DNA of 10,083 nucleotides from Candidatus Wukongarchaeum yapensis (lineage in GTDB: Archaea; Asgardarchaeota; Wukongarchaeia; Wukongarchaeales; Wukongarchaeaceae), in assembly GCA_016840425.1 (NCBI GenBank), contig JAEOSI010000063.1, positions 1 through 10,083 on the forward strand. The letters run 5' to 3'. This document shows positions 1 to 5,589 of this stretch, piece by piece; the stretch's first letter is position 1; each line of letters starts with the position of its first letter. Made by a program: the position numbers and the translations under genes. Under the pieces are notes generated by a model. That model did not search any database. It saw only the letters and a list, made by a program, of their open reading frames with translations, and was not told where the DNA came from.

Positions 1-1413
1 GGGTGCTTCGCGAACTAAACCAAACCGGTGAACCTTCGTCCTTAACCATGCTAGAAGGGTTTTGAGGTTGCCGTTAGATATCTCCTCTTCTAAATCTATA
101 ATTTCTCGTTTAGCTGCAGCAAAGATCTGCGCAGAGTATAGATGACCTAACATGTAACTTGGAAAATATCCAAAATAACCTGAGGACCAGTGAACATCTT
201 GTAGCACACCTTTGGTATTGTTCTCGGGCAAAATACCCAAATAATCCTGCATCTTAGCATTCCAAAGCTCTGGCAGATCTTTAACCTCTATCTCGCCTTT
301 GATTAGAGCTTCTTCTATTTCGAACCGAAACATGATGTGGAGACTGTATGTAACTTCATCTGCATAGATTCTAATCGGGGAAAGTTTCACGATGTTGATT
401 GCACGATAGAAGTCTTCTAATGGAATGCTTTCATAATAGGGGAAAATCCCTTGAAGTTTCGGGTAGAAAAACTTCCAAAAGGGGAGACTTCTACCCACAA
501 TGTTTTCCAACATTAGTGACTGTGACTCGTGAATACCCATTGAATACCCATTATCTAGATACAACCACTTCAACAGATGATCTATTCCCTGATCATAGAG
601 ACCATGACCGCCTTCATGCAGTGTACCGAATAAAGCAGGAGCCAGCTTCCCGTGCGTAAAGTGCGTTGTAACGCGGGCATCATCTGGTCCGATCGAGATG
701 GTAAAGGGATGATTGGTTTTATCCAGTCTTCCTTGATTAAAGTCGTAGCCAATTACCCTAAGAGCTTCCAAGGAGAGTTGCTTCTGAAGGTCTTCGGGAA
801 AGTGTCCTCTGAGAAGAGTTTCGTCTGGTTGATCTGATTGTTCTGTGAGTAACTTAACAAAGGGAACGAGATTTTTTCTAAGAGGTTTGATTATTCTTTT
901 GAGTTCTTCGCTGGTTATTCCTGGCTCATAGTTAGGTAAGAGTGCATCGTAGGGATTTTTATCATATCCATAGTGTTCGGCGAACTGACGTATAAAGCCG
1001 ATTATTTCTTCTAAAGCTGGTTGAAAATGTTTGAAATTCGATTTTTCTTTTGCTTTTACCCAAACATCATAAGCCCTTGCTTTAGCCTCATTGAAAGCTC
1101 TAAAAAGATCTTGCGGAATAGCTTTCGCTCTCTCATAGATGTTTCTTATCCGCCGAATCAGAGCCTGTTCTCCTGGATCAAGTTCTGTTTCCCTTCCAGA
1201 CAACTTTTCAATGGTTTCGCCTATTTCATGGGAAGTGAAAAGCTTGAACCATTCTGCTTTTACAGCCGCAAAAATTTCTGCTCTTCCCCTTGCTCCTTCA
1301 GTCGGCATCTTAGTTTGTTGATCCCACAACAATAGGTTAGACGCATAACCAAACTTACTAGCCCTCTTCAAAAAATCTGACAGCTTCTCGAGAAGACTTC
1401 TTGCTTCACTCAC
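1..1413 (-). CDS. Carboxypeptidase M32 (Taq/Pfu-type metallocarboxypeptidase), 3' end outside window
   Basis: Manual translation of the segments read gives one frame from GTG at 1413 (preceded by AAGGAG) to base 1. N-terminus SEARSLLEKLSDFLKRASKFGYASNLLLWDQQTKMP. Zinc motif HEGGH at 604-618, followed by MGIHESQSLMLENIVGRS, ADEVTYSLHIMFRFEIE and KGVLQDVHWSSGYFGYFPSYMLG, all M32 hallmarks. Absent from the ORF track because no stop codon lies in the window. Confidence 0.95.
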   Translation of the reverse strand, partial: MSEARSLLEKLSDFLKRASKFGYASNLLLWDQQTKMPTEGARGRAEIFAAVKAEWFKLFTSHEIGETIEKLSGRETELDPGEQALIRRIRNIYERAKAIPQDLFRAFNEAKARAYDVWVKAKEKSNFKHFQPALEEIIGFIRQFAEHYGYDKNPYDALLPNYEPGITSEELKRIIKPLRKNLVPFVKLLTEQSDQPDETLLRGHFPEDLQKQLSLEALRVIGYDFNQGRLDKTNHPFTISIGPDDARVTTHFTHGKLAPALFGTLHEGGHGLYDQGIDHLLKWLYLDNGYSMGIHESQSLMLENIVGRSLPFWKFFYPKLQGIFPYYESIPLEDFYRAINIVKLSPIRIYADEVTYSLHIMFRFEIEEALIKGEIEVKDLPELWNAKMQDYLGILPENNTKGVLQDVHWSSGYFGYFPSYMLGHLYSAQIFAAAKREIIDLEEEISNGNLKTLLAWLRTKVHRFGLVREAP

Positions 1414-1481
1414 TGTTTAAATCTCCTTTTCTCCTTCGTGTAATAAATAACGGCTTATTACCGTCTTACTTATAGTCTAAG

Positions 1482-1489
1482 TATAAAAA
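1482..1489 (-). promoter_or_regulatory. Putative archaeal TATA box (TTTTTATA) for the carboxypeptidase gene
   Basis: TTTTTATA on the minus strand ~70 nt upstream of the GTG start. The same TTTTATA motif lies upstream of other minus-strand genes (4300-4306, 7035-7041). Confidence 0.5.
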
Positions 1490-1545
1490 CCATTTCACCT
1501 ACAGCAAATGAGATAATATAGAAAATACTTATAGACAATTTCAAT

Positions 1546-1564
1546 AAAAAGAAAAAAGGGAAAA
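1546..1564 (-). terminator. Putative oligo-T terminator of the LVIVD gene
   Basis: The minus strand reads as consecutive T-tracts (T4-CCC-T6-C-T5) ~70-90 nt after the stop codon at 1634, typical of archaeal intrinsic termination. Confidence 0.4.
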
Positions 1565-1633
1565 GGAGGATTCAAACCCTTGATTATCTTGTAAACCAAC
1601 GTTACAGTTTTCCTGAGATATTTCGCCCTATTT

Positions 1634-4066
1634 TTATTCCTTTTTGAAGTATTTAAAATATGATACTATCGCACCGATTGCCGCTGCTGCAACTCCTATG
1701 CCTACACCTACCCAAAGCCACGGGAATCCTTCCTCTTCTTCCTCTGTTACCGTTTCATAACTAATGGAAAGATCAGATATTGTGGGCGTTTTCGAGGGGT
1801 TTGAAGTTGTTAAAACTGCTTTCCATTTCAACTGACTACCAGCATTCGTGAAGGAATGTTCTGATCCGGGATTGACTTGCTCCCAATGGGAACCATTATC
1901 CGGTGAAAGATAGTAGGTGATAGAACAGCCTGAAGGTATAAAATCATTACAAGTCAAATTTGCGCTAACCAATGATTCCGAACTGGAACCGGAAAAAACA
2001 GTTAAAGACTGAGCAACAGCAACAGATTCAAAGTAGTCCTTCACCACCTCTATAACCTGCAAACCAGAATCTCTGTCAGCTACGTAGGCGTAATCACCGG
2101 AAACAAAAACCCACCGAGCATAATCGGGGGTGTCGTAGACCCCGATTATGTTCGGGGTATCGCTGGCATTGGAAGGGTTTAGGGGATCACTAATATTAAC
2201 AACCTGCAAACCAGAATTTCCGTCAGCTACGTAGGCGTAATCACCGGAAACAAAAACACCCCAAGCATGATTGGGGGTGTCGTAGACGCTGGCATTAATA
2301 GGGTTTGCCGGATCACTAATATCAACAACCTGCAAACCAGAATTATAATCGGTTACGTAGGCGTAATCACCGGAAACAAAAACACCCATAGCACGATCTG
2401 GGGTGTCGTAGACGCTGGCATTAATAGGGTTTGCCGGATCACTAATATCAACAATCTGCAAACCAAAACTATGATCGGCTACGTAGGCATAATCACCGGA
2501 AACAAAAACACCCCGAGCATAACCAGGAGTGTCATAGGCGCTGGCATTAATAGGGTTTAGGGGATCACTAATATCAACAACCTGCAAACCAGAACCATCA
2601 TCAGCTATGTAGGCATAATCACCGGAAACAAAAACACACCGAGCAATAGAGGGGGTGTCATAGGCGCTGGCATTAATAGGGTTTAGGGGATCACTAATAT
2701 CAACAACCTGCAAACCAGAAAGTTCGTCGGCTATGTAGGCATAATCACCGGAAACAAAAACACACCGAGCATTATCGGGGGTGTCATAGGCGCTGGCATT
2801 AATAGGGTTTAGGGGATCGCTAATATCAACAACCTGCAAACCAGAACCCCAGTCGGCTACATAAGCGTAATCACCGGAAACAAAAACACCCCAAGCATCA
2901 TCGGGGGTGTCATAGGCGCTGGCATTGGAAGGAATTAGTAGATAATTGATATATAGAATCTGCAAACCAGAACCTCCATCGGCTACGTAGGCATAATCAC
3001 CGGAAACAAAAACACACCGAGCAATATTAGGGGTGTCATAGGAACCAGCAAAGGTAGGGTTTGCCGGATCACTAATATCAACAACCTGCAAACCAGAACC
3101 CCAGTCGGCTACGTAGGCATAATCACCGGAAACAAAAACACCAAAAGCAAGACTAGGGGTGTCATAGGCGCTGGCATTAATAGGGTTTAGGGGATCACTA
3201 ATATCAACAACCTGCAAACCAGAAACTTCGTCGGCTACGTAGGCATAATCACCGGAAACAAAAACATTACGAGCAATATCGGGGGTGTCATAGGCGCTGG
3301 CATTGGAAGGATTTGCGGGATCACTAATATCAACAATCTGCAAACCAGAATCTCTGCTGGCTACGTAGGCATAATCACCGGAAACAAAAACACCAATAGC
3401 ATTATCGGGGGTGTCATAGGCGCTGGCATTAATAGGGTTTAGGGGATCACTAATATCAACAACCTGCAAACCAGAACCAAAATCGGCTACATAAGCGTAG
3501 TCACCGGAAACAAAAACACACCGAGAAATATCGGGGGTGTCATAGGCGCTGGCATTAATAGGGTTTAGGGGATCACTAATATCAACAACCTGCAAACCAG
3601 AACCTGCATCGGCTATGTAGGCGTAGTCACCGGAAACAAAAACACCCTGAGCATTACCGGGGGTGTCGTAGGAGCCGGCGAGGCTAGGGTGTGTGGGATC
3701 ACTAATATCAACAACCTGCAAACCAGAACCCCAGTCAGCTACATAAGCGTAATCACCGGAAACAAAAACACCCCGAGCCTCACCAGGGGTGTCGTAGAAG
3801 CCGGTTAAAGGAGTGGGGTTGAAGAGGGTTATCCATGGGAGGTTGATGTTTCCAGAACCCCATCCTGAAACGTTTGTATTAGAAGGATCCATGTTGGTTG
3901 TCGTTGTGAAATCTTCAGAATAACTGTCAACAGCACTATTGACTGGTTTTACATTTGTTAGCAGTGTCAATGTGGAGAAGATTAAGACGGCTGAAATAAG
4001 GACGCTCCATCCTTTTCGAAGGTTTAGTTGTTTGTTATCCCTTTTCTCATGGTTTAAAACCATCAT
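1634..4066 (-). CDS. Membrane-anchored cell-surface protein with 14 LVIVD beta-propeller repeats
   Basis: 810-aa ORF with GAGGG RBS. Signal-peptide-like N-terminus (basic region, then WSVLISAVLIFSTLTLL). 14 repeats of ~42 aa, consensus YDTPxxAxxVFVSGDYAYVADxxSGLQVVDISDPxNP, from Y91. These are followed by a probable beta-sandwich domain, an EEEEE linker, a C-terminal hydrophobic helix and a basic tail KYFKKE. Confidence 0.93.
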   Translation of the reverse strand: MMVLNHEKRDNKQLNLRKGWSVLISAVLIFSTLTLLTNVKPVNSAVDSYSEDFTTTTNMDPSNTNVSGWGSGNINLPWITLFNPTPLTGFYDTPGEARGVFVSGDYAYVADWGSGLQVVDISDPTHPSLAGSYDTPGNAQGVFVSGDYAYIADAGSGLQVVDISDPLNPINASAYDTPDISRCVFVSGDYAYVADFGSGLQVVDISDPLNPINASAYDTPDNAIGVFVSGDYAYVASRDSGLQIVDISDPANPSNASAYDTPDIARNVFVSGDYAYVADEVSGLQVVDISDPLNPINASAYDTPSLAFGVFVSGDYAYVADWGSGLQVVDISDPANPTFAGSYDTPNIARCVFVSGDYAYVADGGSGLQILYINYLLIPSNASAYDTPDDAWGVFVSGDYAYVADWGSGLQVVDISDPLNPINASAYDTPDNARCVFVSGDYAYIADELSGLQVVDISDPLNPINASAYDTPSIARCVFVSGDYAYIADDGSGLQVVDISDPLNPINASAYDTPGYARGVFVSGDYAYVADHSFGLQIVDISDPANPINASVYDTPDRAMGVFVSGDYAYVTDYNSGLQVVDISDPANPINASVYDTPNHAWGVFVSGDYAYVADGNSGLQVVNISDPLNPSNASDTPNIIGVYDTPDYARWVFVSGDYAYVADRDSGLQVIEVVKDYFESVAVAQSLTVFSGSSSESLVSANLTCNDFIPSGCSITYYLSPDNGSHWEQVNPGSEHSFTNAGSQLKWKAVLTTSNPSKTPTISDLSISYETVTEEEEEGFPWLWVGVGIGVAAAAIGAIVSYFKYFKKE
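2039..3796 (-). repeat. Intragenic tandem array of 14 x 126-bp units
   Basis: Unit starts at 3796, 3670, 3544, 3418, 3292, 3166, 3040, 2914, 2788, 2662, 2536, 2410, 2284 and 2137 (unit 13 is 147 bp, unit 14 is truncated). The + strand 17-mer TCACCGGAAACAAAAAC and 10-mer CTGCAAACCA occur in all 14 units. Confidence 0.97.
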
Positions 4067-4299
4067 TTATCCCTCATAAAATCCTAAAAAGTTTTTAGAT
4101 TTCAGGAACTGTTTTGGTACAAAAATTAGGAAAAAAGAAAAGCGTAAAGGAAGGTGAATGTTTCATACCTTTCGAAGAACATTTTATTACCGATCGTTTA
4201 CGCGAAAACCGGTCAAAAAATGGGATCGCTGCTACTCCTTACAACTTACACTTTAAAGCGGGATACTATTTTGTACCAACTTAAGTTTAAGAAAAACTG

Positions 4300-4312
4300 T
4301 ATAAAACTTTTT
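4300..4312 (-). promoter_or_regulatory. Putative BRE/TATA element (GAAAAAG-TTTTATA) upstream of the LVIVD gene
   Basis: A purine-rich run directly precedes TTTTATA on the minus strand. It would imply a ~200-nt 5' leader, so the assignment is tentative. Confidence 0.35.
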
Positions 4313-4528: not shown

Positions 4529-4788
4529 TCAAATAGTTGTTATGTCTAATATTTCTATCGCGGCTATGTCTCCTTTTTTATCATGGTGGAGGATTACTTG
4601 TCCATCGTCTGTTGGTTCGCCTTCTGTATGTTCTGCATGTTTAAACTTTATGTACAGGTCTCCTACATCCTCCCCGTAATCGGCCATAATCACTTTTCTG
4701 GAAAGTTTTAATCCATACTTTTTTCCACCAGCTCTAAAACCTCTCTTATGTTTATATCTAAGAGAGATTCAACTTTTTGAATCGCTTA
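4529..4788 (-). pseudogene. DUF2283-family small protein, frameshifted and lacking an upstream start codon
   Basis: 4687-4529 encodes MADYGEDVGDLYIKFKHAEHTEGEPTDDGQVILHHDKKGDIAAIEILDITTI*, matching the DUF2283 pattern (Y-D-x-x-x-D-x-L-Y-I-x-F ... I-x-x-I-E-I-L-D). The upstream segment AIQKVESLLDINIREVLELVEK is in another frame and joins it across an A6 run (T6 at 4719-4724). A GGGGAG RBS at 4792-4797 is followed by TAA rather than a start codon. Confidence 0.72.
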
Positions 4789-5141: not shown

Positions 5142-5336
5142 ATGTTGGAGGATTTTCAAGGGCAGTATATAGTGGATAAAAAGGGGAGGAGGATGGGTGT
5201 AATTCTTTCAATTGAGGAGTATGAGGAACTTTTAGAGGATCTTCACGATCTTTCTATTGTTGCTGAGCGTCGGGATGAGCCCACAACAACTTTTGAAGAA
5301 GTTAAGAAAAAGCTGAAAAAAGATGGGCTCTTATAA
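5142..5336 (+). CDS. Type II antitoxin (RelB/Phd-YefM-like), partner of the downstream RelE
   Basis: 64-aa protein with acidic core, QYIVDKKGRRMGVILSIEEYEELLEDLHDL...ERRDEPT..FEEVKKKLKKDGLL. It overlaps the toxin start by 14 nt, the usual antitoxin-first arrangement. Confidence 0.85.
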   Translation: MLEDFQGQYIVDKKGRRMGVILSIEEYEELLEDLHDLSIVAERRDEPTTTFEEVKKKLKKDGLL

Positions 5337-5589
5337 GGTTTTATGGAAAAAATCAGCGGAAAGAGACCTACGAAACATAGACCTCCAACAAATTCCAAGA
5401 ATAATTAAAGCGGTTGAATCCCTTGAAGATGATCCCTTCCCACCACAATCCCGTAAACTTAGGGGTTCAAAGCAAACTTACAGGATTCGCGTAGGGGATT
5501 ATAGGATAATATATCAAGCGGATATCAAAGCAAAAGTTGTAATAATCTATCATATACGCCACCGCAAAGTAACATATCGTAAACGATAA
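5323..5589 (+). CDS. relE: RelE/ParE-family toxin (RelE/StbE-like mRNA interferase)
   Basis: 88-aa basic protein: YKVLWKKSAERDL, DPFPPQSRKLRG, YRIRVGDYRIIY, HIRHRK. These are characteristic RelE motifs. Confidence 0.9.
   Translation: MGSYKVLWKKSAERDLRNIDLQQIPRIIKAVESLEDDPFPPQSRKLRGSKQTYRIRVGDYRIIYQADIKAKVVIIYHIRHRKVTYRKR

Follow-up and report, generated by a model that had tools for sequence, protein, structure and literature searches.

LVIVD repeats were first described in surface proteins of Methanosarcina (Adindla et al., 2004, PMC2447325). In the literature mentioning them, we found neither a tested function nor a description of the pattern reported here, a uniform propeller scaffold carrying a variable face. 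In other repeat families, highly repetitive WD40 repeats stay diverse at predicted top-face hotspots (Hu et al., 2017, PMC5587647), and recently amplified propellers have been read as products of amplification from one blade (Pereira & Lupas, 2022, PMC9218822). In fungal HNWD proteins of the NOD-like receptors (NLRs), the repeats are reshuffled and evolve in concert, and four codons in each repeat, located on the interaction face, are under positive selection (Paoletti et al., 2007, PMC1805685), and an internal identity of 85% has served as the criterion of high internal conservation in the WD40, ANK, and TPR repeats of NLRs (Dyrka et al., 2014, PMC4986451).

The DNA analyzed here (the window) is a contig of 10,083 nucleotides (JAEOSI010000063.1) from Candidatus Wukongarchaeum yapensis and is contig 27 of the metagenome-assembled genome (MAG) that we searched (GCA_016840425.1; 2.16 Mb, 277 contigs, 92% complete). 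A reading of its letters, hereafter the original prediction, had proposed a candidate archaeal variable receptor or adhesin with a combinatorially diversified surface, and the host is indeed an Asgard archaeon. The array lies in a single open reading frame (ORF) of 810 codons on the minus strand (1634..4066; protein P0001). It encodes 14 LVIVD blades, confidently modeled as two seven-bladed propellers, and its variation is concentrated in loop codons; non-synonymous divergence of these codons from a same-genus homolog exceeds silent divergence, the units evolve in concert, and one variable patch is polymorphic through transfer between blades. The reading that we favor, and hold to be probable on balance, is that of a cell-surface binding protein whose top-face residues are kept diverse by selection, with the scaffold homogenized by unit recombination and patches occasionally transferred.

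The protein shares the Pfam repeat, the predicted propeller, and the cell-surface context with those of Methanosarcina, from which it differs in having 14 blades and two propellers and in its Asgard host. It resembles highly repetitive WD40 propellers such as the Nostoc WRAP protein Npun_R6612 (2ymu), on which it is superposable and which likewise has 14 near-identical blades in two seven-bladed propellers; as in those proteins, the blades are >60% identical, and some nucleotides are the same gene-wide yet different in the blades of a relative. Unlike WD40 WRAP proteins, which are cytoplasmic STAND or kinase proteins, it belongs to the LVIVD sequence family and is predicted to be extracellular and membrane-anchored. 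Unlike the cases of Pereira & Lupas, features of units 7 and 14 that are common to relatives argue for a homogenized old array. With the HET-D/HET-E/HNWD family it shares the concerted evolution of propeller repeats, the units clustering by genome, a few codons per repeat with dN > dS on what the model suggests to be the interaction face, and the shuffling of repeats or patches as a source from which new alleles arise. It differs from fungal NLRs in lacking a NOD/STAND module and a cell-death effector, carrying a signal peptide and a C-terminal transmembrane (TM) anchor instead, and in being an extracellular archaeal protein from a single gene, free of repeat-induced point mutation (RIP), rather than one of a gene family that exchanges repeats; its internal identity of 75% is also below the 85% criterion for NLR repeats. 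The evolutionary mode is already known from WD40, ANK, and TPR repeats, and the present case extends a known principle rather than establishing a new one. What it adds is the pattern in an LVIVD double propeller of an Asgard archaeon, the dN/dS test between species, and a natural patch-transfer polymorphism.

Hypervariable codons in a uniform array

The 810-aa protein matched Pfam LVIVD (PF08309) in 14 stretches with an E value of 4e-170 and 551 bits against a cut-off of 20.2, so that it consists of the tandem repeats of about 42 residues above the gathering score that characterize the family. A six-frame search of the genome returned 14 LVIVD matches above the cut-off, all in this one gene, and the NCBIfam model choice-of-anchor B also scored above its cut-off. 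In the DNA, Tandem Repeats Finder (TRF) reported 13 copies of a 126-nt period with 84% matches at 2161-3797. The mean pairwise amino acid identity among the 14 units is 74.7%, above the values used for highly repetitive propellers (>60% by Pereira & Lupas; at least 70% by Hu et al.). Pfam returned only LVIVD and a weak match to Beta_propel for this protein, with no NACHT and no NB-ARC, and WD40 (PF00400) gave no match at E values up to 0.01; its likeness to WD40 is structural only. An exact-sequence cluster look-up of the 810-aa protein returned no match, and a sequence search of the PDB found no solved relative.

The units start at aa 91 + 42k (k = 0 to 12) and at aa 644, and the codon at position p of a unit starting at aa s runs from nt 4066-3(s+p-2) down to 4066-3(s+p-1)+1. 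When the sequence was re-read, the count of 14 units and the residues listed in the original prediction for positions 5-9 and 22-23 proved exact. Its span of 2039-3796 correctly begins unit 1 at nt 3796 but falls short of the other end, as unit 14 ends at nt 2012 and nt 2039 belongs to its position 33. We treat as hypervariable (HV) the 84 codons at unit positions 5, 6, 8, 9, 22, and 23 (minus strand, within 2012..3796). Within-gene column entropy was 3.04 at position 22, 2.75 at 6, 2.12 at 23, 1.95 at 8, 1.78 at 5, and 1.52 at 9; of the two patches originally called hypervariable, positions 6, 8, 22, and 23 deserve the name, and 5 and 9 are semi-variable and mostly G, D, S, N, or C. The linker (positions 35-42) shows moderate variation too. 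Seventeen scaffold positions are invariant over all 14 units, several of them with one single codon throughout.

This concentration of variation in the HV codons is real and far beyond chance. Among the six youngest, most alike units (2, 3, 5, 8, 9, and 10), 14/18 HV nucleotides vary, compared with 10/108 others (Fisher p 3e-9), and first and second positions of HV codons vary in 12/12 cases against 8/36 for third positions of non-HV codons (Fisher p 2e-6). Per-site differences in the same units were 0.48 at HV first and second positions, 0.106 at non-HV third positions, and 4.4% over non-HV nucleotides. Units 5 and 9 differ at 1/108 scaffold nucleotides and at 5/18 HV nucleotides. By the Nei-Gojobori method, non-synonymous divergence among units (dN) was 0.84 for HV codons and 0.06 for the scaffold, and synonymous divergence (dS) of the scaffold was 0.29. 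Some half-patches recur: CGG TGT (RC) in units 3, 7, 9, and 10; TGG GGT (WG) at positions 22-23 of units 1, 6, and 8; and AGA GAT (RD) in units 4 and 14. Nearly every codon at positions 5, 6, 9, and 23 has the form NNT.

We located these codons on an AlphaFold2 (AF2) model built with 87 homologs, with strands assigned by DSSP. The model had a mean pLDDT of 89.4 and a pTM of 0.79; in blocks of 10 residues, pLDDT in the blades was mostly 94-98, with dips at the unit-7 connector (84), at an insertion (54), and at unit 14 (81). Four strands were assigned to each unit (positions 38-1, 7-13, 16-21, and 25-30), in agreement with the assignment VFVS / YAYVA / LQVVDI / SAYDT made originally from the letters. 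Because 28 strands precede and 28 follow the long unit-7 connector, the array comprises two seven-bladed propellers with one blade per repeat in this predicted, not solved, structure: propeller 1 with units 1-7 (aa 91-384; 2915..3796, minus strand) and propeller 2 with units 8-14 (aa 385-685; 2012..2914, minus strand), each delimited by DSSP and superposition. In VIA-align, model residues 86-374 matched the designer WRAP-T (7big) with a Z of 37.8 and an rmsd of 1.5 Å over 265 residues, PkwA (5yzv) with a Z of 36.9, and the 14-blade WRAP (2ymu) with a Z of 35.6. Residues 42-340 of G-beta (1gg2_B) were placed on model residues 79-372 (Z 34.8), and propeller 2 (372-679) superposed on RACK1/Asc1 and G-beta (Z ~35). 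The Foldseek matches were tandem propellers, namely AIP1, Utp21, PorZ, and Bacteroides hybrid two-component system (HTCS) sensors.

The G-beta chain, once past its N-terminal helix, first supplies the outer strand of the last blade and finally, at its other end, strand C of the same blade. By this correspondence, unit positions 38-1 would be strand D, 7-13 strand A, 16-21 strand B, and 25-30 strand C, and a strand at aa 87-91, just before unit 1, probably closes the ring as velcro strand D of blade 7. Strand 38-1 is the least conserved strand across the homologs, and outer propeller strands are usually the least conserved. The HV sites would accordingly fall in the D-A loop and start of strand A (5, 6, 8, 9) and in the B-C turn (22, 23), on the top face; as alternate loops of an up-down meander, both patches lie on one face. 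The original prediction had placed them there too, and meander topology and superposition on G-beta and WD40 propellers both point the same way. Compared with the WD40 top-face hotspots R1-2, R1, and D-1 (Wu et al., 2012, PMC3419727), positions 6 and 8 would correspond to R1-2 and R1, and positions 22/23 to the hotspot of the B-C turn. From DSSP and the alignment ranges, we infer that the HV residues are exposed on the top face.

Divergence between species, across the family, and within populations

The homolog in a same-genus genome (G001; G000 denotes the present genome), assigned by best match, is 1082 aa long, with extra Ig-like domains ahead of the same anchor, and its 14 units are colinear with the 14 units of the array. 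Between the two species, dN/dS was 0.19 for the scaffold and 0.4-0.6 for the N- and C-terminal domains. At HV positions, 17/83 residues of the same blade are identical across species, no more than between mismatched blades (permutation p 0.47), and 0/14 patch-1 words (positions 5, 6, 8, 9) are common to both. HV dN was 0.87, against a dS of about 0.5 (0.52). In uncorrected proportions of differing sites, an HV pN of 0.516 compares with a pS of 0.372 for the non-repeat regions, a ratio of 1.39 (bootstrap 1.06-1.89; at or below 1 in 0.8% of samples), which rises to 1.56 (1.16-2.13) for positions 6, 8, 22, and 23 alone. Had each blade kept its own residues with dN/dS below 1, an ancient and fixed specialization would have been indicated, as the original prediction pointed out; the outcome in this homolog was the opposite, with same-blade identity equal to that of mismatched blades and HV change above the silent level.

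The scaffold is more uniform within each species than between them. Identity over non-HV nucleotides was 0.893 among units of G000 and 0.821 among those of G001, and between the genomes it was 0.773 for the same blade and 0.766 for other blades. In a unit tree, the units group by genome rather than by blade position, only unit 14 pairing across genomes, and we therefore conclude that the array evolves in concert. Two blades keep features of their own. The degenerate linker of unit 7, LQILYINYLLIPS, forms the connector to propeller 2 and recurs in five homologs compared and at the same spot in the consensus of the 87 homologs, and unit 14 has a position-specific end (VIEVVKD...). Because the unit-7 linker and unit-14 end hold the same places in relatives, we read the array as an old, homogenized set of 14 blades and not as a fresh amplification from one blade, although internal blades may have been re-amplified.

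The same habit extends far beyond the genus. Out of 8,000 candidates scored in a protein search, >7,400 matched at E <1e-10, and the 80 reference-genome loci retained are spread over Asgard groups (Hod-, Hermod-, Thor-, Heimdall-, and Promethearchaeota) and many bacterial phyla. This sample is biased to consensus-like proteins because a repetitive query retrieves such proteins first. Many matches have 14 units, which is the commonest unit count among the homologs compared, with 65-74% internal identity, a scaffold consensus of their own, and variation at the same positions as here. Averaged over 110 homologs, within-protein entropy was highest at position 6 (2.71), followed by 8 (2.58), 23 (2.57), and 22 (2.43). 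In 41 genes, HV pN was 0.40-0.69 throughout while scaffold pS ran from 0.18 to 0.77, and for the 15 genes whose scaffolds are most uniform HV pN was 0.40-0.56. The enrichment of the patches in W, Y, F, R, D, and H that had been likened to antibody paratopes holds family-wide for Y (x2.7), W (x3.0), R (x2.6), and H (x2.0) but not for D or F, and P, V, and I are depleted; in this gene taken singly, R, W, D, N, and G are enriched, and Y is not.

Asgard and bacterial LVIVD members are about 50% identical, and the G+C content of the array is 0.46 against 0.33-0.40 in its flanks (window 2000-4000), with a strong AT skew in the array. These values could reflect inter-domain transfer or merely a shared consensus-like scaffold. 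The present archaeon and its congener have one LVIVD copy each. In some bacterial genomes, 3-5 or more 14-blade paralogs were observed (L028, L036, L041, L043, and L056 [one Latescibacterota MAG]), with further paralog sets at L029, L031, and L079 and at L039, L061, L064, and L101. Such multi-copy repertoires may exchange blades between genes.

Public metagenomes provided a view of populations. Words of the gene occurred in 19 public runs belonging to 15 studies, with seawater, marsh, mangrove, and marine and other sediment as their sources; 11 of the runs had only a small share. We mapped the Logan contigs of four runs (X1, X2, X3, and X6) on positions 1400-4300 of the window. The flanks in X1, X2, and X3 do not differ from the window, and the X1 contigs listed match it exactly on the array (2081-2251, 2869-3008) and from the 5' end of the gene into unit 1 (3745-4090). 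Cover of the array is patchy because unitigs break in repeats, with stretches of about 2370-2466 and 3146-3533 outside any contig, where a lack of further variants is uninformative. A check for within-population variation at the patches had been proposed, and one polymorphism was seen, in patch 1 of unit 14 (aa 647-652; 2111..2128, minus strand). The window and X1 read CCC GAT TAT GCT CGG TGG (P-DYARW); X2 reads CCA GAT CGT GCT ATG with identical flanks (705 nt with 0 differences), and X3 and X6 have G>T at 2126 and, as a loose end, CGT GCT ATG GGT (RAMG). The variant patch in X2, X3, and X6 is the sequence of unit 12, and X2 includes the CCA proline codon unique to that unit. Units 12 and 14 have only 14 nt in common upstream of the patch, which is too short for an artifact of the k=31 graph, and the 31-nt words that join the insertion context of unit 14 to the patch of unit 12 should therefore come from real molecules. 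The variant is thus a natural short-tract conversion of an HV patch from blade 12 to blade 14 in otherwise identical strains, observed as one event.

Two contig joints in these data, with skips of 401 and 718 nt, were set aside, being no multiples of 126 and having short sides and low depth. A search for near-identical full-length proteins gave a best match of 58% identity, the sole near-identical record being P0122, a 431-aa protein encoded on a 25-kb contig from a different assembly, which is residue-identical where present but holds units 1, 2, 11, 13, and 14 only. We considered it as a polymorphism of repeat number; it is most simply an assembler collapse of the repeats, without units 3-10 and 12, and is uninformative on polymorphism. 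Such a collapse is a warning for any short-read copy of the LVIVD family.

Explanations for the diversity of the variable face

In the surface-binding reading that we favor, the signal peptide would export the protein, and the acidic stalk and TM tail would hold it on the membrane. The two WD40-like seven-bladed LVIVD propellers would be its working part, in which about 4-6 top-face residues per blade together form a ligand-contact surface. Gene conversion or unequal exchange among the 126-nt units would keep the scaffold near uniform within a species, and the top-face residues would stay distinct in each blade and be replaced fast between species. The driving force would likely be selection that favors binding surfaces when they are new or different, with point mutation and short-tract patch transfer as the source of variants; selection, rather than a barrier to recombination, would then preserve the HV diversity. 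The variable surface would bind a ligand; candidates are proteins or glycans that belong to a partner, a prey, a virus, or a substrate.

Several points weigh against this reading. Because conversion lowers scaffold dS, a dN/dS above 1 within the gene is by itself no proof of positive selection, and a PHI-like test for mosaicism among the units was not significant (p 0.10), with 57% of informative column pairs incompatible. Between species, HV change surpasses silent divergence only modestly (lower bound 1.06), and this result comes from one homolog, whose orthology is assumed from best match, as comparison with same-genus and Hermodarchaeota contigs revealed no synteny apart from the gene itself; patch transfer among blades would, moreover, inflate same-blade dN. 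The top-face assignment derives from secondary structure and alignment ranges, the population data show one polymorphism only, as most of the array lies outside the short-read contigs, and the unit order, read from a short-read MAG with a five-unit collapsed copy elsewhere, is provisional. Other points favor the main rival, a rather unlikely alternative in which conversion tracts begin and end within identical scaffold segments and stop at mismatch-rich patches, so that the scaffold is homogenized and old differences in neutral, unconstrained loops persist, with neither selection for diversity nor a special role in recognition: scaffold dS is clearly deflated by concerted evolution, the excess over pS between species is small, and each gene, whatever the age of its scaffold, has an HV pN close to saturation (a plateau of 0.40-0.69). 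The same positions are also the least conserved family-wide, as such loops would be. The neutral account has difficulty, however, with the unique terminal regions, which are beyond the reach of intragenic conversion and whose pS (0.372) is still exceeded by HV pN (0.516), and with the observed polymorphic tract, which carries an HV patch, so that the patches are no strict barrier to conversion. The non-neutral residue usage (Y, W, R, and H enriched; P, V, and I depleted) and the contrast between scaffold and HV differences in units 5 and 9 (1/108 against 5/18) are likewise at odds with it.

DGRs (diversity-generating retroelements) occur in some archaea, and the near-universal NNT at positions 5, 6, 9, and 23 superficially resembles AAY template codons, as would be left by such an element or another directed mutator targeting NNT codons. 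This reading is exceedingly improbable, and we reject it. RVT_1 reverse transcriptase gave no match in the 92%-complete genome, in a search that was positive in control genomes, and none was present among the ORFs of the window; nor was any LVIVD unit, as template repeat or silent donor cassette, found outside the gene in this genome, which also speaks against switching of the antigenic-variation type from silent cassettes. Change is not confined to adenines, since most of the variable HV columns have G, C, or T as their majority base: position 8 goes from CGG to CAG, TGG, ATG, ATT, or TTT and position 9 from GGT to TGT, AAT, or TGG, although a test of adenine without a template is indirect. 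The fixed third base is as predicted by an inherited ancestral codon and selection on amino acid change. To our knowledge, no DGR target resembling 14 sites within a propeller has been described. The combinatorially diversified receptor of the original prediction was therefore an overstatement for a single gene with no silent cassettes and no reverse transcriptase, whose habit is that of thousands of LVIVD proteins. An assembly artifact, that is, a chimeric or mis-ordered short-read array of strains or paralogs in which part of the difference between blades would stem from joined population variants, would fit a MAG of 277 contigs, Logan contigs broken throughout the array, and another assembly with only units 1, 2, 11, 13, and 14 as well as the variant patch at unit 14. 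We nevertheless regard it as highly unlikely: the X1 contigs listed agree exactly with the window where they lie on the array, 14 units are the commonest number among the homologs compared, and the same-genus gene, colinear in its 14 units, has 14 different patches of its own. The confident 2 x 7 AF2 fold, the special features of units 7 and 14 in the places where the family has them, and the same pattern in those genes on long contigs, and the one on a complete chromosome, from which units were extractable also speak against an artifact.

Predicted surface display, wider significance, and neighboring features

The gene begins with a signal peptide or signal anchor (aa 1-45; 3932..4066, minus strand), having a basic n-region, a hydrophobic helix at aa 20-36 that is also helical in the AF2 model, and a VNSA end; this N-terminal signal is presumably cleaved before the mature part. 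It is followed by a conserved segment, YSEDFTTT...NT..W (aa 46-86; 3809..3931, minus strand), in which E51, F53, T64, and W69 are invariant across the 87 homologs and pLDDT is 94 near aa 50-60. Behind the propellers, a C-terminal beta-sandwich of about 90 aa (aa 686-775; 1742..2011, minus strand), with strands in the model and a pLDDT mostly >90, is kept family-wide, with W728, G743, W748, and P761 nearly invariant; it has no Pfam family and only generic look-alikes among beta-sandwiches of surface proteins, with a feature score of 0.78 that is below the useful range and a lead only. The sequence then ends in an acidic stalk EEEEE, a GFPW motif, a TM helix, and a KYFKKE tail (1637..1741, minus strand).

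Judged by sequence, this tail looks like an anchor or sorting-signal-like module. The arrangement of acidic run, GFPW, TM helix, and KK(E/P) ends at least 4 ORFs of the genome (at least 3 besides the LVIVD gene; those elsewhere lie on contigs 45, 154, 168, and 43, L108-L111) and also the same-genus homolog. A gene of the Exosortase_EpsH family (278 aa) is present on contig 41, and none of the NCBIfam CTERM models (PGF-CTERM, PEF-CTERM, and similar) matched the tail, which may be an undescribed sorting signal of the archaeosortase type. Because a signal peptide, a stalk, and a TM tail common to other ORFs occur together, surface display of the propeller protein is the expected outcome.

Two seven-bladed propellers followed by a small beta-sandwich in a non-cytoplasmic protein are also found in PorZ of type IX secretion (5m11) and in BT4663 (4a2l/4a2m) and BT4673 (3ott), and the structure matches with Reg_prop propellers share the C-terminal sandwich. 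Foldseek aligned PorZ and the Bacteroides hybrid two-component sensors at E ~1e-15 over 760-800 columns with 11-13% identity, and TM-scores to them were low (~0.3) because the domain orientations differ. Unlike the LVIVD blades, those of PorZ and the BT sensors are diverged and not homogenized, and their ligands, glycans and A-lipopolysaccharide (A-LPS), are not transferable to the present protein.

More speculatively, the 14-blade LVIVD proteins of Asgard archaea and of many bacterial phyla would form a prokaryote-wide class of extracellular, rapidly re-tunable recognition surfaces, a counterpart outside the cell of the fungal and bacterial NLR sensors with high internal conservation, and the single copy of the present lineage would serve specific contact with partner cells, prey, or viruses; we advance this as a tentative and, for now, doubtful generalization, in which intragenic micro-conversion would move top-face patches between blades while homogenizing the scaffold. 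LVIVD proteins number thousands in metagenomes, and for them our results offer a working model of a WD40-like double propeller with a concerted scaffold and a fast top face, in which positions 6, 8, 22, and 23 are the residues to mutate. As a single, fast-evolving, and presumably exposed putative binder in an Asgard lineage near the eukaryotes, the protein is a sensible candidate for contact between cells or with viruses, and it would be a natural consensus-scaffold binder.

Within the gene, a 7-aa insertion, DTPNIIG, separates units 13 and 14 (aa 637-643; 2138..2158, minus strand); it has no counterpart in the same-genus homolog, and pLDDT is <50 at aa 635-640. Its first residues repeat the DTP of the unit start, and it looks like what is left of a unit duplication that slipped or was partial. 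A 97-aa frame on the plus strand (window 2267-2560) and other plus-strand frames within the array are antisense and themselves repetitive, and are thus a by-product of the tandem array rather than genes. Upstream of the LVIVD gene, the AT-rich spacer contains a 54-aa ORF (MIMADYGEDVGDLYIKF...; 4529-4693, minus strand), which may resemble a small DUF2283-type protein. On the plus strand, a 64-aa ORF resembling Phd/YefM antitoxins (5142-5336) overlaps the start of an 88-aa ORF of the RelE/StbE toxin family (5323-5589; TIGR02385, E 5e-6, just under the cut-off), and the two make up a putative toxin-antitoxin pair at 5142-5589.

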